The translations under genes were made by a program, and so were the position numbers. Below the pieces are notes generated by a model that made no database searches, had not been told where the DNA came from, and saw nothing but the letters and a program-made list of their open reading frames with translations. DNA of 64,000 nt from Candidatus Pacearchaeota archaeon (lineage in GTDB: Archaea; Nanobdellota; Nanobdellia; UBA10117; JAFCGA01), in contig JAFCGA010000004.1 in NCBI GenBank assembly GCA_017608345.1, positions 57-64,056 of the forward strand, written 5' to 3'. The stretch's first letter is position 1, and every line of letters starts with the position of its first letter. Below are positions 24,001-62,369 of the stretch, in pieces.

Positions 24001-24839
24001 ATAAGGACAAAGTGGGTAGTCTAACTGCACCTTACTCTGTCGGCCGAATGTTCGACAAAGTCAAAGCCGGCGAAACAAATACATTTGATATTTTAGATGA
24101 TGATCTCGCGGTAACAAGTATAGACTTCGAGCTAAATCAGAATGTAGAAGAATTCAAGATGTTCGCTGCATCGCTAAATAACAGACCTGAAGAGCTAATA
24201 CCGCCGCCAGACCGGATAGTATATCAATACTTAGAAATCGGTGCACCGCAGATAACTGGAAGTGCGGTAAATATGGCCTCAATATCTTTCATAGTCGATA
24301 CTGGTTGGATACTAGACAATTATGTTATAGATAACAGCATTAGACTAGAACGATACGTAGCTGGTGCTTGGGTTCCGCTAACTACTGTAAGAATAAGTGA
24401 GACTAGCTATTTGTTAAGCTTCAGAGCTGCAACTGACGGCTTCAGCTACTTTGCAATTACTGGACTGCAGGGCGATGTTCCAGAAAAAGTAGCTGCTGCA
24501 ACTGAAGAAGAAAAGAGTCCTCTCGAAGAAGTATTCTATAGCGTCCCGGACTTAAAGAAAGTAGACTCAAGTTACTTAAGATTATTGCTCGTGCTAATTC
24601 CAATAATAATGCTATTAATTTATTCTGCAATACATCGAAGGCACAAGCATATCAAAAAAGATAAAGCACCTAAAGAAATAAATAAAGATAAATCACTAGC
24701 AGAAGAACTAAAAGAGAAGCCCGTGGAAGCAGAAGCGGTAAAAGAGAGTGAGCAAATAAAAAAGAAACCTACGCAAAAGAAAAGAAAGGAAAAGCTGGAT
24801 TCCCCTTACCAGGGAAAGGTTTTTAAATTCGGAAGATAG
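3..24839 (+). CDS. Giant LamG-repeat cell-surface protein (adhesin-like, probably N-glycosylated); the 5-prime end runs off the window, and the gene contains an in-frame intein
   Basis: The 8211-aa ORF starts at 204, but the same frame has no stop back to nt 3, and residues 1-67 already read as the tail of a LamG domain (W-H-x-V ... FNGTIDEF.MYDRNLSAAEI.QLY), so the true start is upstream. There are about 30 LamG_3-type domains, each ending in the motif FNGSIDEV.IYNR.LSA.EI..LY. Ig-like domains begin at the DNTQPS / DTTPPA / DNIGPS linkers between 22740 and 23900. The C-terminus has GFSYFAITG, an acidic linker, a TM helix (LLLVLIPIIMLLIY) and a Lys-rich tail. N-x-S/T sequons are extremely dense. 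Confidence 0.85.
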   Translation, partial: SLSVRGGEIRYGRDVAGGVTNRQCYSEVGANDSAWHFVSWSSDGTKNYFSFDGSIITDGDITCSSGTMDGLWFNDQATDTNSIGVLDRLADGGYFNGTIDEFTMYDRNLSAAEIHQLYLGGRDGGNIRNSSSTAVGENYTCEVRPLDYEDWGIAKNSTNLTVLNTPPITIDANVSPFSPNASVELLGYCNSSDEDNDTINFYYKWFRDGVFNLSGYNGGAFTQGIEVNVHNLSAGNTSKGQNWTFSCLANDGTVNASSWQNGSVVIQSTAPTHLNPILNATSVNNYTTDNLTCYNQSTADIDSDYVVNKYSWYKNGALNATTVFLNASTVLYMPFEPNFTASDNSTAGVLDYASTNNGRLGNSTAGTQPNWITSGKIGGAYEFDGVDDYIDTGFTLPSGSSLMKSYEFSVAAWVKVPSTSVAADNSIVIRADTAGGTCGDWNLRLGTTGDWEFWVLQTDNGWVDGTDVATANYAATANEWVHLVGVWNGTDNLYVNGVLRDSASATGNEANEETTNIEIGAFQLGAAAGFPFNGSIDEVQIYNRTLSAAEIHQLYLGGRDGGNIRDSSSTATGENYICEVQPLDYEDQGTAKNSTALTVLNTPPITIDANVSPLTVTTSIDLQGYCNGTDVDNATINYYYRWYKDGALDLSGYNGNGFAQASEVNIHNLSAGNTSRGQNWTFSCLAYDGLSNATSWKNGSVVISNAAPTHSMPWLGAHVPFGTSVALDDGIVGYWQFEYDNGTHTMDETGVNNGSLQGPTLNESGRVGKAYSFDGGDYINTTSGPSAISSDITLSAWIKTGSDATSRAIVASREGSAPNPGWEFFVRASGNGNVLLFQNDNGGYRVGSTNVRDNAWHHVVGVRDNGVFHVYVDGANDDGANTNEGTDMSSSENTLIGLSAANVGSYFNGSIDEVTIWNRSLSAAEISEIYNKSRGTFNTYSNEDISCAVNTSSDSDGDNLTYIYNWYKDDAPMMALYMPFDHDDSGGVNTTKDYSGSENHGQLGSGADGDGAEPVWNSTGFIGGAYDFDGEDDYITLQDSSDWVLNNKFTITAWVKLAGISELYPFSQRQNDDNRMYYLLRNSNNISRLFVKSGASVIVNVEHPVQYMPNIWYHVAIVANGTNYSTFKNGILINASAEADGVPDFNGQAYIGTDQFSGGPSYSNGSIDDVRIYNYALSTNQIKALYLNKTNTIVSAETNVGENYTCEVTPNDATVDGTLLNSSTLIIYNAPPITIDANVSPLTVTTSIDLQGYCNGTDVDNATINYYYRWYKDGALDLSGYNGNGFTQGVEVNVHNLSAGNTSKGQNWTFSCLAYDGLSNATSWQNGSVVISNAAPTHSIPWLGAHVPYGTSVALDDGIVGYWQFEYDNGTHTMDETGLNNGTLVGVNLTHEGKVGKAYEFGNGTWIDTNSNDLGISDPSAIAISTWIYPIGQSESSHIVNDYNRSSIRGWILTLETDNRLHAVNINGAGIRRDSYANPLSLNQWHHIVAVIYPNTTFPVIYLDGNISHNATVSAGAPAALYRGGGNVIIGRQSAYNLGNERYFNGSIDEVTIWNRSLSAAEISEIYNKSRGTFNTYSNEDISCAVNNTADADCYDEETEILTEKGWKYFKDLTNESVLTLNPETHEQEYQEPLAYQNYNVRGDMYRITTERGDLLVSPKHKVYAKIESPSVGAVVMLESQENDDFSSLIDFVLKDKTLANMDSSLSLERIPQGFVAERILNNLAHLPLESFFQDGISTTSLINLTLTLRMNNRSIAHFNDSKNSSTELNLMKGPLFLSSISLANSSRCGSSSTGCQSIFSQNFQALFDSSPVLINSSNIVFFNASSLLNLDQLTQESSLIQCLSSSDIDNTTFAIYSLPSRTNCSNFRNCATFFSKTPLRNTGQLTSGQLSILSFISSGKDNVSVVILPLDSLDTISQNPVDTQDYKASDYELVNIVDIYENPSEKIYFLDEAGNEIFVESITKEYYSGKIYDVDVENNIVLVRRGELVTWSGNSDNLTYIYNWYKDDEPLMALYMPFDHDDSGGVNTTKDYSGSENHGQLGGVADDDAGEPTWNATGGYYGGAYDFDGEDDIINRSSFPGATSTAITVSAWFYPKQHSASLNGYFQYGVDPPAGQNYFRIYSLSSFLALRTRTSAADYRYYNITNTAEIPTNNWYHIVTVWDGTTKNVYINGVNQTLQLLNQGGADTDYTNINNNQILRIGNSYSAPANYPFNGTIDEVRIYNYSLSANQIKALYLNKTNTIVSEETNVGENYTCEVTPNDATTDGPLLNSSTLIIYNAPPITIDANVSPLTVTTAIDLQGYCNGTDVDNATINYYYRWYKDGALDLSGYNGNGFTQGVEVNVHNLSAGNTSKGQNWTFSCLANDGLSNATSWQNGSVVISNAAPTHSRPWLGAHVPFGTSVALDDGIVGYWQFEYDNGTHTMDETGVNNGSLQGPTLNESGRIGKDYSFDGNDYINTGNDNSINLTGALTLSAWVKLNSNGTVQRFISKPSQGTWGGDFARYSLLLQTNNPRFWVESNFNTVQCVDYVFPLNEWVHLAGVFDGTTDAGSLKIYVNGIENCTGASATAAVTASSQDLIIGQRHAADGGEYVDGSIDEVTIWNRSLSATEISEIYNKSRGTFNTYSNEDISCAVNTSSDSDGDNLTYIYNWYKDDAPLMALYMPFDHDDSGGVNTTKDYSGSENHGQLGGVADGDGAEPTWNSTGYVGGAYEFDGVDDYINISTSTSLSPGTSNFSISVWFRTSHPDYSGQAGDIIRNYGSDTDNLYSLTVNTDNKMLASYRDGDADDLIISAQGSAVNDGKWHHSVSVRTSLTTSALYLDGVQIGTDADAAIGNIDTSNGRDLCIGTYSDAAGCTNLEFNGSIDDVRIYNYSLSANQIQALYLNKTNTIVSEETTVGENYTCEVTPNDATTDGTLLNSSTLIIYNAPPITIDANVSPLTVTTSIDLQGYCNGTDVDNATINYYYRWYKDGALDLSGYNGAGFTQGVEVNVHNLSAGNTSKGQNWTFSCLAYDGLSNATSWQNGSVVIANAAPTHSVPWLGAHVPYATSVALDDGIVGYWQFEYDNGTHTIDETGVNNGTLYGPTLNESGRVGKAYSFNGSGDYIEIQYNAALDVTNGDYSFALWMKCNRISINDMAIDFDDPGDDDEVWVDCSRARSYDGVYSDALDFAATKNWTHIVVTKTGTTARIYQDSVLADTVGNWKSFAGAELNLGYRERTADGFFNGSIDEVTIWNRSLSAAEISEIYNKSRGTFNTYSNEDISCAVNTSSDSDGDNLTYIYNWYKDDAPLMALYMPFDHDDSGGVNTTKDYSGSGNEGQLGAGADGDAGEPTWTSEGYYSGAYSFDGTDDYITAGNDAKLQLTGALTISFWINPDNNNAFCPTDPYCGLIDKGGYTSTQGGWGFYGDDSADGSLAFYVDSDLAGGGTSGVWANTTTWTAGQWYHIVATFDGTVGADSLKIYLNGTLDNSSASATATTLGGPNLDLEIGRTSELAGHNFDGTIDDVRIYNYSLSANQIKALYLNKTNTIVSEETTVGENYTCEVTPNDATTDGTLLNSSTLIIYNAPPITIDANVSPLTVTTSIDLQGYCNGTDVDNATINYYYRWYKDGALDLSGYNGNGFTQGSEVNVHNLSAGNTSKGQNWTFSCLAYDGLSNATSWKNGSVVIANAAPTHSVPWLGAHVPYATSVALDDGIVGYWQFEYDNGTHTMDETGLNNGSLNSGVTLSEEGRIGKDYNFDGVNDYISVGTPTSYTTFSVSAWVKPTLNGVAEQAIFGGDTANGKYQPIVLVNSTGYPRAAAHQANSYTLSNTSIDANSWGYIVYVVNDKNNKIYLDGILIAESTEANSPGAWDPVHYIGKRDNEWYFNGSLDEVTIWNRSLSATEISEIYNKSRGTFNTYSNEDISCAVNTSSDSDGDNVTYIYNWYKDDEPLMALYMPFDHDDSGGVNTTKDYSGSGNNGQLGSSAEGDGAEPTWNSSCVLGGCYNFDNSSTEYIDLADDTFKYQSFSVAAWVKVGKSTTYPSIFSVANTNMYCGYAVGFIGPENRIQFITVENNGGVRDKTNSSAVNLDQWYHVAAIRNGTTGMKLYINGTEVDEDTALGTILYAGCIGGDTFYPFIGRVGTAANQRYFNGSIDDLRVYEYALSAAQIEALYLNKTNTIVSQETNVGENYTCEVTPNDATTDGTLLNSSTLIIYNAPPVTIDANVSPLTVTTAIDLMGYCNGTDVDNATINYYYRWYKDGALDLSGYNGAGFTQGVEVNVHNLSAGNTSKGQNWTFSCLANDGLSNATSWQNGSVVIANAAPTHSVPWLGAHVPYATSVALDDGIVGYWQFEYDNGTHTMDETGNYNGTLYGPAFNESGRVGKAYTFLEPNYIDAGTSSKLRPNTITGMAWIKTSDATATIFSKFPTAAGTNGYMLTLGSQGNLTVRIGGLAELQVIGLTLVNDSKWHLVAFTRDSSNDISLYVDGALDKTGNIATAFNTDVSFKIGKYIWTGTDYWEFNGSIDEVTIWNRSLSAAEISEIYNKSRGTFNTYTNEDISCAVNTSSDSDGDNLTYIYNWYKDDEPLMALYMPFDHDNSGGVNTTKDYSGFGNNGQLGAAADGDGAEPVWNSTGFIGGAYEFDGDDDYIDIGNVYDADQSAITWALWFKADITINDNGILGRGGAVSYPSIKVQNNKIYSGIRIGGVNYNNWTSFTDTTNWHHVAMTYDDADDIVRHYLDGIETNITPTAGGVAEMNFDLYIGRYHSAPFVFNGSIDDVRLYNYSLSANQIKALYLNKTNTIVSEETSVGENYTCEVTPNDATVDGTLLNSSTLIIYNAPPITIDANVSPLTVTTAIDLQGYCNGTDVDNSTINYYYRWYKDGALDLSGYNGAGFTQGVEVNVHNLSAGNTSKGQNWTFSCLANDGLSNATSWKNGSVVISNAAPTHSVPWLGAHVPFGTSVALDDGLVGYWQFEYDNGTHTMDETGINNGSLNGPILNESGRVGKAYSFDGVNDYINAGANLNNILNKKEWSISLWLNTIDDNGFYLTNRESNNNDEVRFANAFASANITITYDDDTVGAVNVVSSVSGNDSIWHHAVATINSTTLSLYVDGTLSDTGDVSGSGNLNLDDITVIGARKDTGGWYAAGHSSYLNGSIDEVTIWNRSLSATEISEIYNKSRGTFNTYSNEDISCAVNTSSDSDGDNLTYIYNWYKDYEPLMVGYWSFDTQFDATDNSTAGVTDYSGNNNDGRLGNSTAGTQPTWNANGYISGAYEFDEIDDHIVTDNEANFDFERTDPFTVECWFKTDTSASNVILGKMDATSPFPGYQVIIRNADNWLMLYIISGAGGAGDRIVVEGNTVVTDNAWHHMVATYAGNEDASGALIYVDGALETMNTVTNGLTGSILNNIPFQISGKDGAVDLYKGAIDEVRVYKYTLSAAQVQALYLNKTNTIVSEETSKGENYTCEVTPNDATTDGTLLNSSTLIIYSAAPTHANPILNATSINNYTTDNLTCYNQSTADIDGDYPVNVFSWYKNDVLNATTVFLNASTVLYMPFDENITGNLQTVRDYASNNDGVLGNVTAGTDPTWNASGKVGGAYTFDGVDDYINVGDNTNFEFAANSAFALSTWIKANSAVVQESRIISKRYNVVGGNSQYMLNVNSTGAIRFWLYDGADNYAKYPNAITFGQWHHVLAQRKTDGTMEVYVDGVIGSVTDSTTATAGVNDGNLTVGTDERTANREFNGSIDEVQIYNRTLSADEISQLYLGGRDGGNIRDSSSTATGENYTCEVQPLDYEDWGIAKNSTNLTIQNTAPVTIDANVSPFSPNASVELLGYCNSSDEDNDTINFYYQWYRDGVFNLSGYNGGAFTQGVEVNVHNLSAGNTSKGQNWTFSCLANDGVLNATSWQNGSVVIQSTAPTHANPILNATSINNYTTDNLTCYNQSTADIDSDYVVNKYSWYKNDVLNATTVFLNASTVLYMPFEPNFTASDNSTAGVLDYAGSNNGRLGNSTAGTQPNWTSEGKVGGAYEFDGVDDYINLDTHVNSFEGWNIGAISVWFKVTSASACLYSISNKADTNDIMDFTVGVSTGSYGDESIRFSHVPNGAETLGMFVRNGHTAYTDGNWHHAVLTIGGAGNAIYIDGVSQAITYRAGNAGTNEFSDLFAADTVGIGRYAAGGVTNFEINGTIDEVQIYNRALSAAEVHQLYLGGRDGGNIRNSSSTAKDESYICEVQPLDYEDQGLAKNSTALTVLNTVPTQTQPILNATSVNNYTTDNLTCYNQSTADDDLDAVTNIYNWYKNDAPIMMLNMPFDHDDSGGVNTTKDYSGRNNHGQLGTSADSDSAEPTWDTSGKVGGTYNFDGSNDYIRISDSSSLDQTSAFSIETWVDINGTAKDNTIKSIASKGNLDKEAAGYNLYWNDVYSENFLNFSCNGWTAAQPPTTSYMKNCTNFWKGYAEDTYSAVDNCNTCTLNNNPEGATDGAYIATTNADLGPVWIYKSFPTTPGENFTVDIRYRITKKTTGGGPMNGGLYVWEGTVVPCSGNRQTGSCEDPNGNTTDAIASDHTTCDLAGWCAWQDYTTTNITNASTFTVGMYTWDSWNIWAVYLDVDYVNVSTLSKRVSFMLGDASNNMSTIFASNVSDGWRHIVGTYDGGTQSLYVDGVLNTSTSFTNLIGTNNLDLIIGSEPNNNIYHYEGKIDEVRIYNRSLSAAQVYQRYLEGNNSISTSTIVSDDTTAGEVWNCSVTPNDGEADGTTLTSLNLTIQNTAPVTIDANVSPFSPNASVELLGYCNSSDEDNDTINFYYKWFRDGVFNLSGYNGGAFTQRVEVNVHNLSAGNTSKGQNWTFSCLANDGILNASSWQNGSVVIQSTAPTHLNPILNSTSVNNYTTDNLTCYNQSTADIDFDHVVNKYAWYKNGVLNATTVFLNASTVLYMPFEPNFTASDNSTAGVLDYAGTNNGRLGNSTAGTQPNWTLDGKVGGAYVFDGINDRIQIADSASLDAIKDITVEAWINSNDITLQQTIVGFIDNVVSKGPQLMIRADGGIIWAVQNGVGAYRRCYTAIGLLEANKWYHIAGTFDDTSKARAIYINGESIAFEGDDLNLGVMAHGDIRAIGASSVPNPLYNFNGSIDEVQIYNRTLSATEIHQLYLGGRDGGNIRNSSSTAKDENYICEVQPMDYEDMGTAKNSTALTVLNTVPTQTAPILNATSIYNYTTDNLTCYNQSTSDVDGDSLTNIYNWYKNEQPLMRFNLPFDHDDSAGAGKTKDYSGSGNDGQLGAAADGDGAEPIFNSTGAIGGAYEFDGTNDYIELPATAKVTGEFTISVWFKLDQEITDEPSAPALFGGAAMRGPAEKGGASLAFLMTTGKLYFDTYNTTTRAASISTTAVWGTTDWYHVVATRNSTTQELWINGIREDSGDTVKGSLSWAAGWGAAKIGYASYIYFNGTIDEFKIYDHSLTAEQIKTLFSNKTDIIVSDETTAGENWTCEVTPNDATSDGTTLNSTTNITIIAAPITLYSNITPAAPNVSADLEGFCNGTTATNVNYYYSWYKDGVLNISDYDGGAYASNAEINIHNLTAGNTSYNENWTFSCLANDGVINATSWQNYSVIISDVTEPVVTFNAPIDGENVSGSIIINATITNGASGVNASRVYYWLENATGNQTKWTSMSNITVDLFNTSFNINSIADGYYNITINASDNAGNINASEKVQIQIDNTQPSIIVTAPINNSILTSAILNITGTASDANPDNVTANNAIFGQNLNTYTNWNFSNISMDDGIYTAIITANDTLGNSNSTSVTFTIDTTPPAVNITNPSDGDTVSEVITINSTITDATSGVNASRVYYWLSNETGNQTAWTSMTNTSSVFSASFDTTTLGIGAYNITINATDIANLENSTEYIQITITADNIGPSVTLESPTDRTITSTRTITFLYSVNDVGSDISNCSIWTNLNGTWLLNATNSTPIVESTSGQEFTIDSLPYTTFLWNIQCYDTAPTPNSRFATNNYTLTIALSSAGGEDGVNVGAGGSRTIDKDKVGSLTAPYSVGRMFDKVKAGETNTFDILDDDLAVTSIDFELNQNVEEFKMFAASLNNRPEELIPPPDRIVYQYLEIGAPQITGSAVNMASISFIVDTGWILDNYVIDNSIRLERYVAGAWVPLTTVRISETSYLLSFRAATDGFSYFAITGLQGDVPEKVAAATEEEKSPLEEVFYSVPDLKKVDSSYLRLLLVLIPIIMLLIYSAIHRRHKHIKKDKAPKEINKDKSLAEELKEKPVEAEAVKESEQIKKKPTQKKRKEKLDSPYQGKVFKFGR
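5007..5276 (-). CDS. RelE/ParE-family type II toxin, encoded antisense inside the intein
   Basis: The 89-aa protein has the C-terminal motif SFVLKYEVDEARKIVIFLAFEHHDSAY, which aligns with the RelE core YRIVYQVDDENRTVYVLRVGHRKEVY, and the N-terminal NPLRYKSL is typical of RelE. Its start overlaps the upstream ORF by 4 nt (ATGA). Confidence 0.6.
   Translation of the reverse strand: MSYTSVIHPKCKREIDKACSRNPVLEKALKRKMSEIIQNPLRYKSLRYSLKGERRVHIRKSFVLKYEVDEARKIVIFLAFEHHDSAYRR
5273..5569 (-). CDS. Putative antitoxin or partner protein of unknown family, middle gene of the cassette
   Basis: The 98-aa ORF is translationally coupled on both sides: its start directly abuts the stop of the upstream ORF, and it overlaps the RelE-like gene start by 4 nt. 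The protein is charged and helical. Confidence 0.4.
   Translation of the reverse strand: MANVVLSISEELKHWIRELSWVNWSRLSREEALKKTIFDEFIKTGELSNKAWKFCEKIDWHPVDELPQREEFAKEIEERKRGPFIKFNSVDEFFESLK
5570..5752 (-). CDS. Small RHH/CopG-like DNA-binding protein, putative antitoxin or autoregulator, probably starting at Met10 (nt 5725)
   Basis: MTTLTLSFPDEIKERMD is a predicted beta-strand followed by two helices (EVNWPVFLRGVLEKKVAQLRKFEQL), which is a ribbon-helix-helix-like pattern. It is the first gene of the three-gene minus-strand operon. Confidence 0.4.
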   Translation of the reverse strand: MVSKESKGKMTTLTLSFPDEIKERMDNCPEVNWPVFLRGVLEKKVAQLRKFEQLVREGKL

Positions 24840-24863
24840 AGAAATAACATGCAAAACGGTGAG

Positions 24864-24880
24864 TATCCCTGGCAGTAGAA
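24864..24880. repeat. 17-nt direct repeat TATCCCTGGCAGTAGAA, copy 1
   Basis: It is identical to 25924..25940. It lies 25 nt after the giant-gene stop, and a GTG sits in the racemase-like frame immediately upstream (GTG AGT ATC CCT GGC AGT AGA A). Confidence 0.8.
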
Positions 24881-24884
24881 GATC

Positions 24885-25125
24885 AGAGATAATCAGAGTT
24901 ATGCAATTTTTAGGTGGTTCTCCGTGGAGCGGGAGCTATCTACAAAACACGGGGTCATAGCATAAATTGTTCTGCTAGCAAAGCAGTACTTGTGCAACCC
25001 GGCAGTGCGGCGGGTTCCAGACCCGTCGATGGGGGTTCAAAGCGAGCCCTTTTCTTTCGCGAAAGAAAAGGTTTCGCCGCATCCCAAAAGAAAGGCATTT
25101 TACTACGCGACTTCGTCGCTTCGAA
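24885..25125. other. GC-rich, hairpin-rich non-coding region, a candidate structured RNA or leader
   Basis: GC is locally much higher than the flanks, and there are mutually overlapping stop-free ORFs on both strands (24955..25206 minus, 24990..25202 plus). There is a perfect palindrome CCTTTTCTTTCGCGAAAGAAAAGG (25048-25071) and a hairpin CAACCCGgcagtgcggCGGGTTc (24984-25006). I found no tRNA cloverleaf. Confidence 0.2.
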
Positions 25126-25126
25126 T

Positions 25127-25912
25127 ATGCCTTTGGCAACTTTTGAGATGTCGGCACTTGAAAATCCCTCTGACCCCATTTTTATTCCAATGGAAAGGGT
25201 GAACACTTTAATCGGGTACTACTTGCTCATAAAGAAGCTTACGATAGCGCATAAGCTCCATGCCGAAGAGATAGGCACGAGTGTAGAAAATAATCCGCTA
25301 ATCTTGCTCAGAAAAGGTCCAAAAAATAATAAAAGCATTTTTATTGAGTTCGGCTGTCATGGCAATGAAATATATCGAGTCAGGGAGCTTCTATCTTTTC
25401 CAGAAACGCTTAGTAAGATAAAGGATACTTATACTTACTATTTTATCTTGACTAATCCGGATGGACTAATATTAAATACTCGAGAAAATGCTCGCGGAAA
25501 GGATATAAACCGAGATTTCATTAAATTTACTACGCCAGAAGCGAGAGCGTTAAATAAATTCATTACTGCTAATAAAAAGAATATAAAAGCAACATTATCG
25601 ATTCATGGTGCTCGGCTCGGCTCAAAACTAATACATATGGGAAAAGGGCACAAGCTAGCAAAGAGCATTAAGCGAGCGCTGAGATCTGCTGAATTGGATT
25701 ATCCTCATCCATACATGAATGAAATTGAAGAAGAGCCAGGAATATTTGGAATGATAAATCCGAATAAAAAATTCGGAACATTTTCAGAATATGCTGAATC
25801 ACTAGGAATACCCTCTTGCGCAGTTGAAATGCATAAAGATGCAATAGATAAGCATCTTTTCTTAATGGAAATGCTAGTGGGGACTAAGAAGTATTTGGAG
25901 AATAAAAAATGA
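25127..25912 (+). CDS. Zinc hydrolase of the succinylglutamate desuccinylase/aspartoacylase (AstE/AspA, M14-like) family
   Basis: The GCHGNE motif (GxHGxE zinc site) and a downstream IHGAR motif support the family. The ORF track starts at 24914, but the first 71 codons lie in the GC-rich non-coding-like region, so the start is more plausibly the Met at 25127 (MPLATFEM). Confidence 0.55.
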   Translation: MPLATFEMSALENPSDPIFIPMERVNTLIGYYLLIKKLTIAHKLHAEEIGTSVENNPLILLRKGPKNNKSIFIEFGCHGNEIYRVRELLSFPETLSKIKDTYTYYFILTNPDGLILNTRENARGKDINRDFIKFTTPEARALNKFITANKKNIKATLSIHGARLGSKLIHMGKGHKLAKSIKRALRSAELDYPHPYMNEIEEEPGIFGMINPNKKFGTFSEYAESLGIPSCAVEMHKDAIDKHLFLMEMLVGTKKYLENKK

Positions 25913-25923
25913 CTTCGGGACAA

Positions 25924-25940
25924 TATCCCTGGCAGTAGAA
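25924..25940. repeat. 17-nt direct repeat TATCCCTGGCAGTAGAA, copy 2
   Basis: It lies 12 nt after the TGA stop of the hydrolase gene and overlaps the first codons (IPGSR) of the racemase reading frame. Confidence 0.8.
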
Positions 25941-26602
25941 TAGGTATACTTGGAGGAATTGGACCAGAAGCTACGGGAGAGTTTTATCTTAAACTCATCA
26001 GTAAATTACAGGCCAGTGGTCGCATTAAAAGTAATACAGATTTCCCTAAAATAATCATTAATAGCATTCCCGCACCAGAATTAGTATCTGAAAAAATTAC
26101 TGATTTTGATTTAGAAGAATACGTTATTGGACTAAAAGAGCTAGAGAAATTATCGGTTGATTTTATTGTTATGGTTTGTAATACTATACACTTGTACCAT
26201 GGCGAATTACAAAAGCAAATATCTATACCCATCATCGATCTAAGAGCAGGAGTCGAGCAAGAATTAATAAAACGAAATATCAAAGAAATTACTGTTCTTG
26301 GTACTCCTGAGACTGCAAAGAGATTATATAACTTCAGAAACATCTCGATTCGACTTCCAAGTACTTTGGATCAACAGAGAATAGCTAATACCATTGAGAA
26401 TTTCAATAAAGGGGCGAATAAAGCTAAGCAAGTCTCCAATCTCCGCGAAGTAGCTCTTAGATATGAGAATATAATGCTTAGCTGTACTGAAGTTTCTTTA
26501 ATGGCAAAAGATTTATCAGCAATTGACACTTTTAATGTTCTTATTGAAATGGTATTGGAAAAGCTTAATAAAATCCATAGCGAGGTAAATAACAATGGCT
26601 AA
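25940..26602 (+). CDS. Aspartate/glutamate racemase family protein. It has no canonical start codon and is in frame with the upstream gene across one TGA
   Basis: Translation gives IGILGGIGPEATGEFY (the N-terminal catalytic-Cys region motif of Asp racemases) and VMVCNTIH (second catalytic Cys, CNTAH). The frame is open from 25913, but there is no ATG, GTG or TTG before the first ATG at 26171. The stop overlaps the trpS start (ATGGCTAA). Confidence 0.55.
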   Translation: MGILGGIGPEATGEFYLKLISKLQASGRIKSNTDFPKIIINSIPAPELVSEKITDFDLEEYVIGLKELEKLSVDFIVMVCNTIHLYHGELQKQISIPIIDLRAGVEQELIKRNIKEITVLGTPETAKRLYNFRNISIRLPSTLDQQRIANTIENFNKGANKAKQVSNLREVALRYENIMLSCTEVSLMAKDLSAIDTFNVLIEMVLEKLNKIHSEVNNNG

Positions 26603-27683
26603 CTTCAAAATAACACCCTACGAAGTAAAGGGAGAAATTGACTATGATAAAGTTGTCTCCAGATTTGGGGCGCAGAAAGTTACCAAGCAGCTCATCAAGA
26701 AAATGAAAGCTCTTCCGATGATCATGCGTAGAGGCTACATCTATGCGCACAGAGATTTTGACAAGATACTAGCCAAGAAGAAATTTGCTATTGTCTCCGG
26801 CCGAGGAGTATCAAACAAGATCCAACTCGGACATTTAACCACCCTTAGATTCGTCAAAGAATTGCAGGATATTTATGGCTGTTATGTATTCATACCTTTC
26901 TCAGATGATGAGAAGTACATGTATAAACGAGACCTCAGCTTCGAGAAATTAAAAGAGTTAACTTATGAGAATATTTTAGATATAATTGCTCTGGGGTTCG
27001 ACCCGAAGAAAACTGACTTTGTAGTAGATACTCAAAATATGAATCAGGAGATATATAATTTAGCAGTTCGCTGCGCAAAACGAATAACTTTCAGTACCGT
27101 TAAGGCGACTTTCGGGTTCACAAATGAAAACAATATTGGCATAACTTTCTACCCAGCTATGCAGGCAGCACATATACTCTACCCGACAGTTAAGAAAGGA
27201 CTTCCGGTGGTTGTTCCAGTAGGAATTGATCAAGATCCGTTCATTAAACTGTCTCGAGATGTTGCTTACAAATTGAAATTAACTAAACCGGGCGGAGTTT
27301 ATTGTACCTACGTTCCGGGACTAAAGGGCGGCGGCAAGATGTCTGCCACTGATCCAGACAGCACGATTTACACAACAGATACGCCTAAAGAAGTTGAGAA
27401 AAAGATCAAAAAGTATGCATTTTCCGGAGGACAACCAACAATTAAAGAGCATAGAGAAAAAGGTGGTAATCCGGATGTGGATGTATCTTATCAATATCTA
27501 ACTTTCTTTATGGAAGATGATAAAAAGCTGAAAAAGATTTATGCTGATTATAAATCTGGCAAGATGTTGACATCTGAGTTAAAACAAATTTGCATTGACA
27601 CAATTAATAGCTTCTTAAAAGAGCACCAGAAGAAGCGAGAAGCTGCAAAAAAGAACATCGAGAAGTTCATGTTGAGAGACTAA
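26595..27683 (+). CDS. trpS: Tryptophanyl-tRNA synthetase (archaeal/eukaryotic type class I aaRS)
   Basis: It has a HIGH-like motif (KIQLGHL) and KMSATDP (KMSAS-type), it is 362 aa, and its architecture fits TrpRS better than TyrRS. Confidence 0.65.
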   Translation: MANFKITPYEVKGEIDYDKVVSRFGAQKVTKQLIKKMKALPMIMRRGYIYAHRDFDKILAKKKFAIVSGRGVSNKIQLGHLTTLRFVKELQDIYGCYVFIPFSDDEKYMYKRDLSFEKLKELTYENILDIIALGFDPKKTDFVVDTQNMNQEIYNLAVRCAKRITFSTVKATFGFTNENNIGITFYPAMQAAHILYPTVKKGLPVVVPVGIDQDPFIKLSRDVAYKLKLTKPGGVYCTYVPGLKGGGKMSATDPDSTIYTTDTPKEVEKKIKKYAFSGGQPTIKEHREKGGNPDVDVSYQYLTFFMEDDKKLKKIYADYKSGKMLTSELKQICIDTINSFLKEHQKKREAAKKNIEKFMLRD

Positions 27684-32065: not shown

Positions 32066-32422
32066 TTAGTAGATATAGCCCTCAAATTCCAAGTCATTCG
32101 AAGTAAAATTAATAGAATAATTTCCTCTAAAGCCATTATAATTAACAATAGCGCATGCTAGTCCGATTCCTTGCTGAGAATACACGCTCTTAAGATGCGG
32201 GCACAAATCTGATTGCTGTGCATTAGCAACCGACCAAGTATTACGGTCTTGAATTGAGTTTTGAATATTTTTAAAATCCAAGTAGCTCGATTTTGTGAAT
32301 AACGTAACTGCAGCAGTATCAGTTGTCCTAAAAAAGCTAAACAGGACAAACATCGATAACGCTAGAAGCATTATCGCAACCATAAAAAACTGTGATTTTT
32401 TAGACTTCATAATTTCTCCCAT
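32066..32422 (-). CDS. Small pilin-like protein (putative class III signal peptide)
   Basis: MGEIMKSKKSQ is followed by a hydrophobic helix (FFMVAIMLLALSMFVLFSFF). It is the last gene of the minus-strand pilus-like cluster. Confidence 0.45.
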   Translation of the reverse strand: MGEIMKSKKSQFFMVAIMLLALSMFVLFSFFRTTDTAAVTLFTKSSYLDFKNIQNSIQDRNTWSVANAQQSDLCPHLKSVYSQQGIGLACAIVNYNGFRGNYSINFTSNDLEFEGYIY

Positions 32423-32527
32423 AAATATAATTTATATGATTCGTCCCAATCAGCCCTTTTATTTTTGCGAGTCTGTAACATAACTAATCCGTCCAAAAGC
32501 GTTGGCGGAAAATTTATAACTTCCATT
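32407..32527 (-). pseudogene. Remnant duplicate of the 3-prime end of the pilin-LamG gene
   Basis: The block TCTCCCATAAATATAATTTATATGATTCGT (32410-32440) recurs at 32535-32565 with a decaying match beyond. It encodes the same C-terminal peptide ...ESYKLYLWEKL* as gene 32528..33658. Confidence 0.4.
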
Positions 32528-33658
32528 TTAGAGCTTCTCCCATAAATATAATTTATATGATTCGTTCCATTGGCTGTTTCCGCGAGTGTAAGTAGTACTG
32601 ATAATATCATTATTAGTCGTTGCAGTAATAGCGGGACAATTAATACCTTGATTAACTAATCCGCTGTAATCTCGCCAAATCTCATCTGCAGTCAGAGCGC
32701 GATCAAATACCCAGAGCTCATCAAGAGTGCCATTTAGTGTAATCAACGACGCGTTATTATATCTGCCAATCATAAACGGCGCTGTATTCGTCAGACGTGG
32801 CCCGACAAAGGTATCATTTTCTCGCTCAATCCCATTAACATATATTCTAATATCTGTCCCAGATACAGTTCCCGCAACATGGCGCCATTCATTATATGGA
32901 AAATCAATTGAGCTCTGCGCAAAGTTACTCCCGCTCGCTGTCCCATTTCCTAAAAATAGCAGCGGCTTTTGAGGATCAGCCCATGAGCCTTGCGCAAAAT
33001 AATAAGGAGTTTGAGGAAATACTCCTGTGCCTTTAGAAATAATTGACGGTGAATACACCGCGCCCTTTCCTTTATCTCTTATCCATGCTACAAAACTAAG
33101 ATCTCCGACAAAATCAAAATCAGGATCATTAGTGCAATTAATCCAATCATCTACGCCATCAAAGTCTGCTCCGGAGTTAAATTTCCCCGAGCTTGTAAAC
33201 GAAGCACCATTAACAAAAGTACAATTATGTCCATTCCCAGAGGAATCACAGATATCTTTTCCATCCGCACAAGAATTGTCTGCTCCTTCATCCATATTCC
33301 ACATAGCCACAGTATTTGCATCCATCACTAACCCTGCGGAGGAATTTATAATATAGCAATCAGAATCACGATAGTATTGTACTTCGAAGCCAACTGTGTT
33401 TGGTAAGCTAGCTTTAAGATGCTCGTCTAGCTCTTCGAATGCCCTTCCGTCAGTCATTATCCTATCGAGAGCTCCACTCGCATCGAGATTGTTGAGTATA
33501 TTCCACGCTTCGTCACGTAGCGTAGTTAATTCGCTCTTTGTGTCTGTGGCTTGATCAGAATACAAGAACCCAACAACAAACACCAATACAATTATCGCAG
33601 TAATAATTATCTCGATGAAATACACGAACCCGGTCTTATCTTCAAACATCCTTACCAT
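32528..33658 (-). CDS. Pilin-like protein fused to a LamG/concanavalin-like domain
   Basis: The N-terminal TM segment (FVYFIEIIITAIIVLVFVVGFLY) is followed by a LamG domain (NEWRHVAGTVSG...LNGTLDELWVFDRALTADEIW). Confidence 0.6.
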   Translation of the reverse strand: MVRMFEDKTGFVYFIEIIITAIIVLVFVVGFLYSDQATDTKSELTTLRDEAWNILNNLDASGALDRIMTDGRAFEELDEHLKASLPNTVGFEVQYYRDSDCYIINSSAGLVMDANTVAMWNMDEGADNSCADGKDICDSSGNGHNCTFVNGASFTSSGKFNSGADFDGVDDWINCTNDPDFDFVGDLSFVAWIRDKGKGAVYSPSIISKGTGVFPQTPYYFAQGSWADPQKPLLFLGNGTASGSNFAQSSIDFPYNEWRHVAGTVSGTDIRIYVNGIERENDTFVGPRLTNTAPFMIGRYNNASLITLNGTLDELWVFDRALTADEIWRDYSGLVNQGINCPAITATTNNDIISTTYTRGNSQWNESYKLYLWEKL

Positions 33659-59929: not shown

Positions 59930-60079
59930 GGCTGCAGTAAGCAGCCTTATTTCCGAGCGTAGCGAGCTATAATCCTGTAGCGAACTGTCCAGTGAGCGTC
60001 TATTTCGAAGCTCCGAAGGAGCTGAGCAAGACGCTTTTCTTTCTTGGACACCTAGTTCTTTCTTTTCGCAAAAGAAAGA
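59930..60079. repeat. Palindromic hairpin cluster
   Basis: GGCTGCagtaaGCAGCC, the nested AGCGTCT...AGCTCCgaaGGAGCT...AGACGCT, and TTCTTTCTTTTcgCAAAAGAAAGAA. Confidence 0.6.
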
Positions 60080-60089
60080 AATGGTTGGA

Positions 60090-62369
60090 TCAACCCATAT
60101 ACTCGGGAACAATAGCTCCGCCACATTTAGCAGCTTTCATCGCTGCCTGATACTTCGCTAGATCTCCATTACAAATAGAAGACTTAACTTCTTTCATAGC
60201 TGCATCAAAGTGCTTTTTCTTAACCTCTTTAGCGCTCATGTTTTCGCGAAGAGCTCTCATTGCTGCTTCTCGGCAAAGTCCTTCAATATCTGCACCTGAA
60301 AAGTTCACGGTTTTATTAGCTAAGTCCATTAATTTAACATCTTTTGTCAGCGGCATCGAATCAGTATGAACCTTAAACACAGCTAGCCGCGCCTTCTGAT
60401 CTGGAGGCATAATTAATACTTGCCGATCAAACCGTCCCGGGCGAAGGAGAGCTGGATCAACTAGCTCTGGCCGATTTGTAGCTGCAATTACAACCACGTC
60501 AGTTAGTTCTTCAAGACCATCCATCTCGGAAAGAATCTGATTAACAACTTTCTCATTAACTTTTGATCCATCCATTCCTCCTCGCGCAGATGCAATCGAA
60601 TCTATCTCATCAAAAAATACTATCGCTGGTGAAACTTGCCTAGCTTTCTCAAAGATCTTTCTAATAGCTTTCTCTGATTCTCCAACCCACTTTGAGAAGA
60701 CTTCGGGACCTTTTACTGAAATAAAATTAGCATTAGATTCTGTAGCTACGGCTCTAGCTAAAAGTGTCTTACCGCATCCAGGGGGACCATATAATAGAAC
60801 TCCTTTTGGTGGTCTGATTCCCAGTCTGCTAAAACTATCTGGGTTTTTCAGCGGCCATTCAACAGCTTCCTTTAATTCTTGCTTGGCTTTTGCTAAACCG
60901 CCGACGGAGTCCCAAGGAACCTTCGGAGCCTCAACTAGCACCTCTCGCATAGCAGAGGGTCTAACGGTTTTCAGACCTTCCTTGAAGTCCCGCTTTCTAA
61001 CTGTCAGTTTCGCTAGGAATTCTTCTGGAATCTTTTCTTCTTCCTTAAATTTGAAACCAGAAATGTTCTTACGTAATACGCTCATTGCAGCTTCCTTGCA
61101 TAGCGCTTCTAGATCTGCTCCGACAAATCCGTGGGTAATCTCAGCTAGCTCTTTCAAATTAACGTCTTTAGCTAAAGGCATATTTCGAGTATGAATCTTA
61201 AGAATATCTAATCTACCTTCCTTGTTAGGTATACCAATCTCTATTTCTCGATCAAATCTTCCACCTCTTCGAAGAGCAGGATCAAGAGCATCTGGTCGAT
61301 TAGTAGCTGCGATAACAATGACTTTTTCTCTGCTCTTTAAACCATCCATTAAAGCTAGCAACTGAGCTACAACTCTGCGCTCAACTTCACCATAGGACTC
61401 CTCTCGCTTAGGTGCTATTGAATCGATCTCGTCTATGAAAATTATCGAGGGTGAATTCTTTTCAGCATCTTCAAAAAGCTGACGGAGTTTCTTTTCAGCT
61501 TCACCATAAAATTTATTCATAATAGCTGGAGCATCTAAGTGGATAAAATGTGCTTGAGTTTCATTAGCCACGGCCTTTGCTAGAAGAGTTTTACCGGTAC
61601 CTGGCGGTCCGAATAATAGAATTCCCTTAGGGGGTTTTATACCTAATCGCTGGAAAATCTCTGGGTGCTTTAGCGGAAGCTCGATTATCTCTCGAACTTT
61701 CTTGACTTCTTCTTCTAAACCACCAATGTCCTCGTAGGCCACTTCTGGAACAACTTCCTCTTTTAATTCTACAGGTTCTGATTTTATGTCTAGCTTTGTG
61801 TCTTCAGTTATTATTACAGCTTCCTTCGGAGTTGTATTTACAACTTGAAATTTTAATCCACCAAAACCAAACGAGCCCATATTTGCTCCAAGATCCCCTT
61901 CTCCAAAAGCCATCCTGAAAATATCATCAAACGAACCCATCGACATAGTCTGTCTACGTCTGCGCGTTCCGCCCAGTGAAATTATATCCCGCTTTGAGAC
62001 TGCGCGACCCAATAGAGAACGTTTAAAGATATCCTTGCCACCGGAAATCATAATTTTCGCACCAATTGGAGCAATAGTTACTTGCTTAGCAGGCCTTATT
62101 TCAGCTTTTCTAACAGATACTTTCTCACCAATAGATGTACTTGCATTACGTCGGGTTAGCGAATCGGCACGTATTATTGCCAAACCCATATCTGCAGGAA
62201 ATGCTCTCCCAGCAATAGCAACCGTCTTTTTTTCACCCTGAATTTCGACGATCTCACCTTGCTGGATACCGATTTTCCGCATAATTTGAGAATCTATTCT
62301 AACAATACCTTTGTTAACATCATCTTGCTGCGCTTCTGCAACTTTTAGTGATAATTCTGGAATTGCCAT
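60090..62369 (-). CDS. cdc48: CDC48/VCP-like AAA+ ATPase (two AAA domains)
   Basis: There are two Walker A motifs (GPPGTGKT and GPPGCGKT), second-region-of-homology motifs, the N-terminal double-psi barrel region, and 759 aa. Confidence 0.9.

Follow-up and report, generated by a model that had tools for sequence, protein, structure and literature searches.

A 17-nucleotide repeat as a putative duplicated tryptophan-codon leader beside a hidden intron-rich tRNA-Trp gene and a racemase gene without a start codon in a DPANN archaeon

Several described systems resemble parts of the locus reported here. The gene prfB, encoding release factor 2 (RF2), is autoregulated by a +1 frameshift from a short 5′ open reading frame (ORF) into a main ORF without a start, and the leaders trpL of Escherichia coli and rtpLP of the Bacillus subtilis anti-TRAP system are very short ORFs with Trp codons near the stop. 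To our knowledge, leader-peptide attenuation is not established in Archaea. Recoding is almost unexplored in this domain as well, and a 2021 review gives a single proven −1 frameshift and no +1 case from a cellular gene (PMC8211752). Here, we analysed a stretch of 64,000 nucleotides of a Candidatus Pacearchaeota archaeon (contig JAFCGA010000004.1, assembly GCA_017608345.1; hereafter the window), in which a 17-nt direct repeat brackets a tRNA-Trp gene and an M14-family peptidase gene, and its second copy lies at the 5′ end of an amino-acid racemase ORF that has no start codon and is followed by the gene of an archaeal-type tryptophanyl-tRNA synthetase (TrpRS). The repeat looks like the conserved 3′ two-thirds of a nine-codon ORF with one Trp codon and not like an insertion scar. 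The best explanation we can offer, a serious possibility that still falls short of being probable, is that the repeat is a duplicated Trp-sensing leader cassette with recoding, in a locus built around tryptophan decoding. We regard as firm that the locus hides a tRNA-Trp gene rich in introns, that the gene models need the corrections given below, and that two lineages have a racemase without a start behind an in-frame UGA.

The 17-mer TATCCCTGGCAGTAGAA is present in exactly two copies in the window, both on the forward strand, as an earlier note on this DNA had reported (Table 1). No third copy was found in the window at up to two mismatches, and 100 shuffled sequences gave none. By our own estimate, ~0.004 such pairs are expected within 1.1 kb of each other in 64 kb. 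Public metagenomes, in a collection without the source contig, returned 56 single matches with unrelated flanks, which is approximately the chance number. The flanks of the two copies in the window are also unrelated to each other, except for an ATG at offset −15 in each. When the genes with internal repeats were excluded, the other exact repeats of at least 15 nt were a 31-nt repeat at 32414/32535 and a few AT-rich 15–16-mers. The contig is metagenome-derived, which would allow for an artefact; common assemblers, however, require an overlap of at least 20 nt, and 17 nt are shared here. Considering also the low expectation, the result of the shuffling and a match in a relative with a chance probability of ~1e-3 (below), a chance repeat or an assembly artefact appears very improbable.

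Each copy of the 17-mer is the 3′ part of a short ORF whose frame lies one base upstream of the racemase frame (mini-ORF 1 and mini-ORF 2; Table 1). Mini-ORF 1 is in frame with a giant ORF that precedes it and begins three codons past the TAG of that ORF, the extension reading RNNMQNGEYPWQ. The ATG of mini-ORF 2 overlaps the stop codon of the M14 gene (ATGA), and because of this overlap its translation would be coupled to that of the peptidase. A counterpart was found among the relatives, which were gathered with the TrpRS gene as query (highest TrpRS identity, 76%) and whose loci carry L numbers below. In L097, CAATATCGGTGGCAATAGAAC stands 37 nt upstream of tRNA-Trp and matches CAATATCCCTGGCAGTAGAAT at 17 of 21 positions, the chance probability being our own estimate for that intergenic region. 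There it belongs to the mini-ORF MATASQYRWQ* (positions 353–385; ATG GCA ACA GCT AGC CAA TAT CGG TGG CAA TAG). All three mini-ORFs keep the ATG (15–18 nt upstream), a single Trp codon followed by Gln, and TAG, and the differences CAG/CAA (window versus L097) and GGT/GGA (copy 1 versus copy 2) are synonymous in their frame. Thus, three ORFs of 9–10 codons with one UGG each are placed ahead of either a tRNA-Trp gene or a racemase–TrpRS pair. In L097 the TATA-like box TTTATAAA lies at the same distance (~21 nt) upstream of the mini-ORF ATG as the box upstream of mini-ORF 1, so that the latter is a candidate promoter of a leaderless transcript that would run from mini-ORF 1 into tRNA-Trp; copy 2 is without a TATA-like box. 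Because L097 has no racemase and nevertheless has CAATATCGGTGGCAATAGAAC upstream of tRNA-Trp, copy 1 is not simply a stranded racemase start.

The retention of the element upstream of tRNA-Trp in L097 would also suit a cis-element that acts untranslated as DNA or RNA, for example a site for a Trp regulator, in which case the racemase would start at ATA 25940 or ATC 25925. Such a start finds some support in the ATA GGT found at the first Ile of the conserved strand in both the racemase of the window and a second startless racemase described below. However, no Shine–Dalgarno (SD)-like sequence precedes the ATA, AUA initiation is very inefficient in the systems where it was measured, and no dyad symmetry is visible in the 17-mer. 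An untranslated element is also harder to reconcile with the in-frame ATG and TAG that all three elements keep and with their synonymous differences, and we consider this explanation quite unlikely.

The racemase itself was examined in its reading frame. After the TGA at 25910–25912 the frame reads LRDNIPGSRIGILGG, and the first ATG, GTG or TTG in it is ATG 26171 at residue 87. The Pfam and NCBIfam racemase models begin at residues 10–13, and the homologues have 5–9 residues ahead of the IG[IV]LGG motif, for example MVAGGRIGVLGG and MSMNRKIGILGG. The ORF is otherwise undamaged, with 229 codons and both catalytic cysteines kept; it scores 68.7 bits with PF01177, and its alignment to the structure 1JFL spans residues 3–222, with VCNTIH and SCTEVS aligned to the Cys motifs. 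The nearest homologues are 50–54% identical and occur in Candidate Phyla Radiation bacteria and DPANN archaea in unrelated contexts without synteny. The 3′ end overlaps the start of TrpRS by 8 nt, and the public gene call P0001 (26192–26602) shortens the protein to 136 aa. The earlier note had described this frame correctly: there is no ATG, GTG or TTG ahead of IGILGG, copy 2 encodes the first residues of the racemase, the racemase continues the frame of the M14 ORF past a single TGA, and a GTG (24859) stands ahead of copy 1 in the racemase-equivalent frame. Its interpretation that an insertion had decapitated the gene is weakened by comparison with a second racemase, which is startless without such a duplication.

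That racemase is encoded in L038, and in L039 and L040, three independent assemblies with identical sequence here, in which an ORF for a winged helix-turn-helix (wHTH) protein and its TGA are followed by EGNAFGKKNIGVLGG. No ATG or GTG occurs upstream of the conserved NIGVLGG strand, and the only in-frame start candidates nearby, the ATG chosen by the gene caller and a TTG that encodes the Leu of VLGG, are inside the conserved motif. The TGA precedes the Ile of this strand by exactly 10 codons, as in the window, and both racemase ORFs are intact. Since the racemase of L038 is likewise startless after an in-frame TGA, the missing start is a recurring design and not damage by the 1.06-kb segment. 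Furthermore, an ATG overlaps the upstream TGA in L038, and the sequence ATG AGA GGG GAA UGC CUU|U GGC AAG leads from it into the racemase frame by a +1 step, at a CUU-UGG site with GAGGGG 5 nt upstream. The window has CCC-UGG at the equivalent place. Of the Pro codons in the window, CCC is used least (2.8 per 1000). It is never followed by TGG among the 19,845 annotated codons, against 0.9 such pairs expected, which is not significant. The N-termini predicted for a +1 shift are equal in length in the two organisms, with 10 residues before the conserved Ile, and over the overlap the mini-ORF frame (G-[QE]-x-x-W-Q) is better conserved between them than the racemase frame. These features suggest that the startless racemase is probably made by recoding, and the recoding is possibly a +1 frameshift at the Trp codon.

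The shared frame of hydrolase and racemase in the window had led the earlier note to consider read-through or recoding of the TGA, and we retain recoding in a different form. In L038, too, the upstream ORF and the racemase share a frame. If UGA 25910–25912 were read through, for example by near-cognate tRNA-Trp, an M14–racemase fusion would result in the window and a wHTH–racemase fusion in L038, and the mini-ORFs would be by-products. The stop context AAA-UGA-C, with adenines upstream and C at +4, is of a type that is leaky in other systems, near-cognate tRNA-Trp is the classical decoder in UGA read-through, and in L007 the M14 homologue is naturally fused in frame with an enzyme domain that follows it. 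On the other hand, TGA is an ordinary stop in the window, where it ends 11 of 38 ORFs and no other TGA has a coding extension past it; on the same grounds a global reassignment of TGA was rejected. A 78-aa wHTH protein fused to a racemase makes little functional sense, and read-through leaves the 17-mer repeat, the L097 element and the shift-prone codon with UGG unexplained. An ATGA overlap combined with a +1 shift would also yield the shared frame automatically. We consider read-through at this UGA improbable.

Under the frameshift proposal, the mini-ORF cassette would have been used twice, hence the two copies of the 17-mer. Copy 1 would head a transcript that runs into tRNA-Trp, like its homologue in L097, and mini-ORF 2, whose translation would be coupled to that of M14, overlaps the 5′ end of the racemase ORF in the −1 frame. 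With plentiful Trp-tRNA the ribosome would read W-Q and stop at UAG without entering the racemase frame. While UGG in the A site waits for Trp-tRNA-Trp, peptidyl-tRNA-Pro could slip from CCC to CCU, after which GGC AGU AGA AUA GGU would be read to give MTSGQYP-GSRIGILGG..., and the racemase would be made only when the ribosome on mini-ORF 2 shifts +1 at CCC-UGG. In L038 the slip at CUU-U would give MRGECL-GKKNIGVLGG.... Because a ribosome waiting at UGG is the classical hungry-codon condition, racemase synthesis would be tied to the supply of Trp-tRNA, in a locus that encodes a carboxypeptidase-like enzyme besides tRNA-Trp and TrpRS. From the arrangement of the codons we infer translation of the mini-ORFs, the frameshift and the response to Trp. 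A frameshift sensor of this kind is a possibility that we hold tentatively. The wider proposal, that a DPANN family makes its startless racemase by a programmed +1 frameshift at a shift-prone codon followed by UGG, which reports the supply of charged tRNA-Trp, and that the same mini-ORF heads the tRNA-Trp transcript, is speculative and on present evidence somewhat doubtful.

Several points weigh against these proposals. The frameshift design is seen in two lineages only and the mini-ORF in two genomes only, and with an identity of only 32% between the two racemases a common origin of the design is unproven. In the L097 element the codon before UGG is CGG, where no shift is favoured, so that the element, if functional, must work differently. 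The SD-like elements upstream of the shift codon are GAGGGG at 5 nt in L038, GGUGAG at 3 nt in copy 1 and only CGGGA at 6 nt in copy 2; the better stimulator is thus at copy 1, where the +1 frame is a meaningless one of 30 codons. A feedback loop that reaches TrpRS is doubtful, since this gene retains a conserved TATA-like leader of its own. An exact match of 17 nt with unrelated flanks also fits a recent short duplication or a recombination scar. Finally, cellular +1 frameshifting is not demonstrated in Archaea (PMC8211752).

The surroundings of the TrpRS gene were compared between the window and its relatives. The order in the window is mini-ORF 1, tRNA-Trp with its introns, M14, mini-ORF 2 overlapping the startless racemase, and TrpRS. 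In L097 (TrpRS identity 71%) a mini-ORF and tRNA-Trp precede TrpRS; in L099 (74%) it is the 3′ half of a tRNA-Trp-like sequence and two small ORFs; and in L007 (75%) an ORF of unknown function and an M14–AAA_18 kinase fusion. Other genes are found upstream in L037 (76%), L098 (72%) and L100 (61%), and L038, L039 and L040 (66%) have the 78-aa wHTH ORF, the racemase and a 59-aa ORF ahead of TrpRS. None of the five nearest TrpRS contexts (L007, L037, L097, L098 and L099) contains a racemase. Among the GTDB species representatives, TrpRS was at most 54% identical, with no tRNA-Trp, M14 or racemase adjoining, and scans of viral contigs gave chance coding matches only and no TrpRS relatives. Six close relatives were aligned, and five of them, all but L037, keep approximately 45 nt upstream of the TrpRS ATG, with the TATA-like TTAATAAAA and GAGGTAA. 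This leader is retained in L007 (coordinates 2075–2116), L099, L098 and L097 despite unrelated upstream ORFs, and it encodes the C-terminal tail of the racemase (...NKIHSEVNNNG*) in the window and that of the kinase (...NKTNSEVSKDG*) in L007. Genes seem to be exchanged upstream of a fixed TrpRS leader, with the adjoining upstream gene as the variable part.

These comparisons bear directly on the insertion that the earlier note had favoured. In the form weighed here, a 1,043-bp segment with tRNA-Trp and M14 entered codon 8 of a racemase begun at GTG 24859, the 17 bp being duplicated or recombined at, and the racemase would be a recent pseudogene or rescued only incidentally. The exact direct repeat at both junctions with unrelated flanks agrees with such an event, as does the correct frame of GTG 24859, from which the rebuilt V-SIPGSR-IGILGG would resemble homologue N-termini such as MVAGGRIGVLGG. 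In addition, the racemase-equivalent frame of the L097 element encodes NIGGNR, similar to a racemase N-terminus, and the element could be a relic of the event followed by deletion. An in-frame start one to three codons upstream of copy 1 would, however, arise by chance with a probability of ~0.05–0.15. Because either tRNA-Trp (L097 and L099) or M14 (L007) adjoins the orthologous TrpRS, the DNA between the repeats is native to the locus, while the racemase is the gene missing from the five nearest contexts. The segment 24881–25923 holds only the tRNA gene and M14; no terminal inverted repeats, transposase or integrase were found. The junction of an empty site had no match in public metagenomes. 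With an undamaged racemase ORF and the startless L038 gene, which lacks such a repeat, the insertion with a 17-bp target duplication is poorly supported, and together with the view of the racemase as a pseudogene we consider it unlikely. A length of 17 bp also exceeds the transposase target duplications that we know of. Removal of the 1,060 nt from the mRNA by the tRNA endonuclease was tried as another route and rejected, the junction duplex of −20.2 kcal/mol being no better than that of shuffled sequences (−16.0 ± 3.5 kcal/mol). Scans for terminal inverted repeats, sigma-70 promoters and terminators gave nothing informative.

The GC-rich structured region that the earlier note took for inserted cargo was found to be a tRNA-Trp(CCA) gene native to the TrpRS locus. 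The region folds far better than shuffled sequences (z = −4.8). Rfam gave no family at gathering thresholds in the window and nothing relevant in 24700–25400 at E values up to 10, and ARAGORN on the raw sequence called no tRNA in the region. A tRNA-Thr reported by ARAGORN with intron options was rejected as spurious. Three clues, namely the closing helix GGGGTCA...TGACCCC followed by A, the stem-loop CGGG-TTCCAGA-CCCG and the pair GGGGG...CCCTC, match the tRNA-Trp directly upstream of TrpRS in L097. When three inserts were removed in silico, ARAGORN called tRNA-Trp(cca) in 1890 of 1920 boundary variants. The spliced form of 75 nt makes a canonical cloverleaf, is 66% identical to the tRNA-Trp of L097 and carries G1-C72 and A73, the archaeal Trp identity set (PMC5370408). 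The intron at position 59/60 is bounded by a bulge-helix-bulge (BHB) motif with the T stem GGGGG/CCCUC as outer helix, a 4-bp central helix UUCA/UGAA and 3-nt bulges AAG and AAU, and the 5′ inserts show BHB motifs that are only relaxed or ambiguous. Non-canonical and multiple archaeal tRNA introns are reported to need (αβ)2 or ε2 endonucleases (PMC4090602, PMC5829648, PMC3239211), and of the two enzyme types that reportedly cleave non-canonical introns one is a heterotetramer with two kinds of subunit (PMC5829648); the relative L038 encodes two tRNA-splicing endonuclease subunits. For the hairpin that separates mini-ORF 1 from the tRNA, a role in termination or attenuation is possible.

The ~95-nt core of the 59/60 intron has a paralogue at 59990–60090 on the minus strand, which was the only match when the RNA region was compared with all fetched loci by nhmmer. 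The paralogue begins at the stop codon of a CDC48 gene (60090–62369), upstream of an ORF for a 313-aa secreted protein, and both stems show compensatory changes between the core and the paralogue (GCGAC/GTCGC versus GCTCC/GGAGC; GGCAT/ATGCC versus GCGTCT/AGACGC). The surrounding sequence showed no recognisable tRNA exons, and the paralogue could be an independent RNA or a remnant of intron mobility. In L099, positions 1–135 hold a tRNA-Trp-like anticodon arm, T arm and 3′ acceptor strand without a recognisable 5′ acceptor strand, and ACTGCCCC occurs twice, 77 nt apart. The tRNA-Trp gene of L099 may be split, permuted or intron-rich.

The hydrolase between the tRNA and the racemase, assigned by the earlier note to the M14/AstE-like family, was identified as such by its matches to Pfam, NCBIfam and solved structures and by its zinc and catalytic residues. 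It scored 40.9 bits with PF00246 (cut-off 21.6) and 27.9 with PF24827 (cut-off 25), and HGNE (HxxE), NRDF, SIHG with the second His and the Glu of VEM were read from its translation. MpaA was matched in NCBIfam and is the nearest relative of solved structure in the PDB. The closest homologue, P0125 (E 4e-22, 34–37% identity), was the only good one among 1.8 billion representatives and is encoded directly upstream of TrpRS in L007. The public gene call P0121 (24914–25912) starts the protein at GTG 24914 and runs through the whole tRNA-Trp gene. Since 24951–25178 is a tRNA gene, this start is excluded, and, judged by the alignment with P0125 and by where the tRNA ends, the start is most likely ATG 25190, 12 nt after the tRNA. 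In L007 (871–2124) the homologue continues in frame into an AAA_18 P-loop kinase domain, which opens with its own Met (MPNILFIGGATGVGKST) just past an SD-like GAGGA, which suggests that two genes were fused by loss of a stop codon.

Table 1. Positions of the features of the TrpRS locus in the window
Feature	Position	Strand	Basis or remark
TATA-like box TTTTTAAATT, candidate promoter	24820–24829	+	inside the 3′ end of the giant ORF, ~21–29 nt upstream of ATG 24849
Mini-ORF 1, MQNGEYPWQ*	24849–24878	+	ATG CAA AAC GGT GAG TAT CCC TGG CAG TAG
17-mer, copy 1	24864–24880	+	mini-ORF frame TAT CCC TGG CAG TAG AA
Hairpin between mini-ORF 1 and tRNA	24911–24942	+	fold; follows T5 tract (24906–24910)
tRNA-Trp(CCA) gene with inserts	24951–25178	+	in-silico removal of inserts and ARAGORN, cloverleaf fold
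Proposed tRNA-Trp exons	24951–24973, 24991–24997, 25011–25041, 25165–25178	+	
5′ inserts of tRNA-Trp, boundaries approximate	~24974–24990, ~24998–25010	+	~30 nt together
123-nt intron, tRNA position 59/60 (T loop)	25042–25164	+	BHB; two-hairpin core of ~95 nt
M14-family (MpaA/AstE-like) zinc peptidase gene	25190–25912	+	profiles, motifs; stop TGA 25910–25912
Mini-ORF 2, MTSGQYPWQ*	25909–25938	+	ATG ACT TCG GGA CAA TAT CCC TGG CAG TAG
Asp/Glu-type amino-acid racemase ORF	25913–26602	+	no canonical start before IGILGG; VCNTIH and SCTEVS present
17-mer, copy 2	25924–25940	+	exact repeat search
Proposed +1 shift site CCC-UGG	25927–25932	+	sequence logic; CUU-UGG at the equivalent place in L038
Conserved TrpRS leader/TATA-like segment TTAATAAAATCCATAGCGAGGTAA	26550–26594	+	also encodes the C-terminal tail of the racemase
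Archaeal-type TrpRS	26595–27683	+	profile search

Other features of the window were also noted. The giant ORF upstream of the locus (204–24839) encodes 8,211 aa of repeated LamG-like and adhesin-like modules, with a Hint/intein-like insert (CYDEETEILTEKGW...VLVRRGELVTWSGN|S) and a long low-complexity middle. The exact 31-nt direct repeat ACGAATCATATAAATTATATTTATGGGAGAA lies at 32414–32444 and 32535–32565, 121 nt apart, among genes on the minus strand. One copy is the 3′ end of the ORF 32528–33658, and the other is the TATA-like region and ATG of the ORF 32066–32422, so that this is another short repeat that duplicates a gene-start region.

The locus illustrates how annotation pipelines can fail in DPANN genomes: tRNA-Trp was missed and called as the N-terminus of a peptidase, and the racemase was called as a 136-aa fragment. 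A genome in which tRNA-Trp is scored absent in this way will have wrong estimates of completeness and decoding capacity.

Compared with insertions by transposons or integrases that duplicate a target or att site, the locus shares the exact direct repeat around a discrete segment and differs in its native cargo and in having no terminal inverted repeats or recombinase; a relative without this arrangement, moreover, has a homologue of the repeat. Archaeal tRNA genes with multiple or non-canonical BHB introns are known from Thermoproteales and ARMAN/DPANN lineages. Like them, the tRNA-Trp gene has a BHB at 59/60 with the T stem as outer helix, several inserts in one gene that standard tRNA finders miss, and an intron-like core that recurs elsewhere in the genome; the intron of 123 nt is long by comparison, and its splicing is predicted from the sequence. 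With trpL and rtpLP the mini-ORFs share the very small size, the position of the Trp codon near the stop and the placement ahead of Trp-related genes, which would suit them to sensing charged tRNA-Trp, and mini-ORF 2, like rtpLP with its 10 codons, has its stop codon within the region where the next gene begins. They differ in having a single Trp codon and in their downstream units, a tRNA gene and a startless ORF. No alternative terminator/antiterminator pairing was identified, the only structure of this kind being the T5 tract and hairpin at 24906–24942, with nothing comparable in L097. Another parallel is prfB. Here the sensor would be the sense codon UGG and not a stop codon, and the product a racemase and not a decoding factor, in an archaeon. 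As in prfB, a short 5′ ORF of the window overlaps a startless main ORF that lies in its +1 frame, and L038, L039 and L040 have such an overlap as well, with a shift-prone codon for the P site (CUU-U in L038, the codon used by prfB, and CCC-U in the window) and a zero-frame stop close by. An SD-like element lies a few nucleotides upstream in L038 and in copy 1, whereas copy 2, at the racemase, has only CGGGA. The A-site codon would likewise be read by the factor whose abundance is sensed, slow decoding of UGG being an assumption. If true, such a shift, gated by a hungry Trp codon, would give cells a new means of sensing the supply of an aminoacyl-tRNA. It would also be the first +1 frameshift of a cellular gene in Archaea and the counterpart of RF2 autoregulation with a sense codon as sensor.

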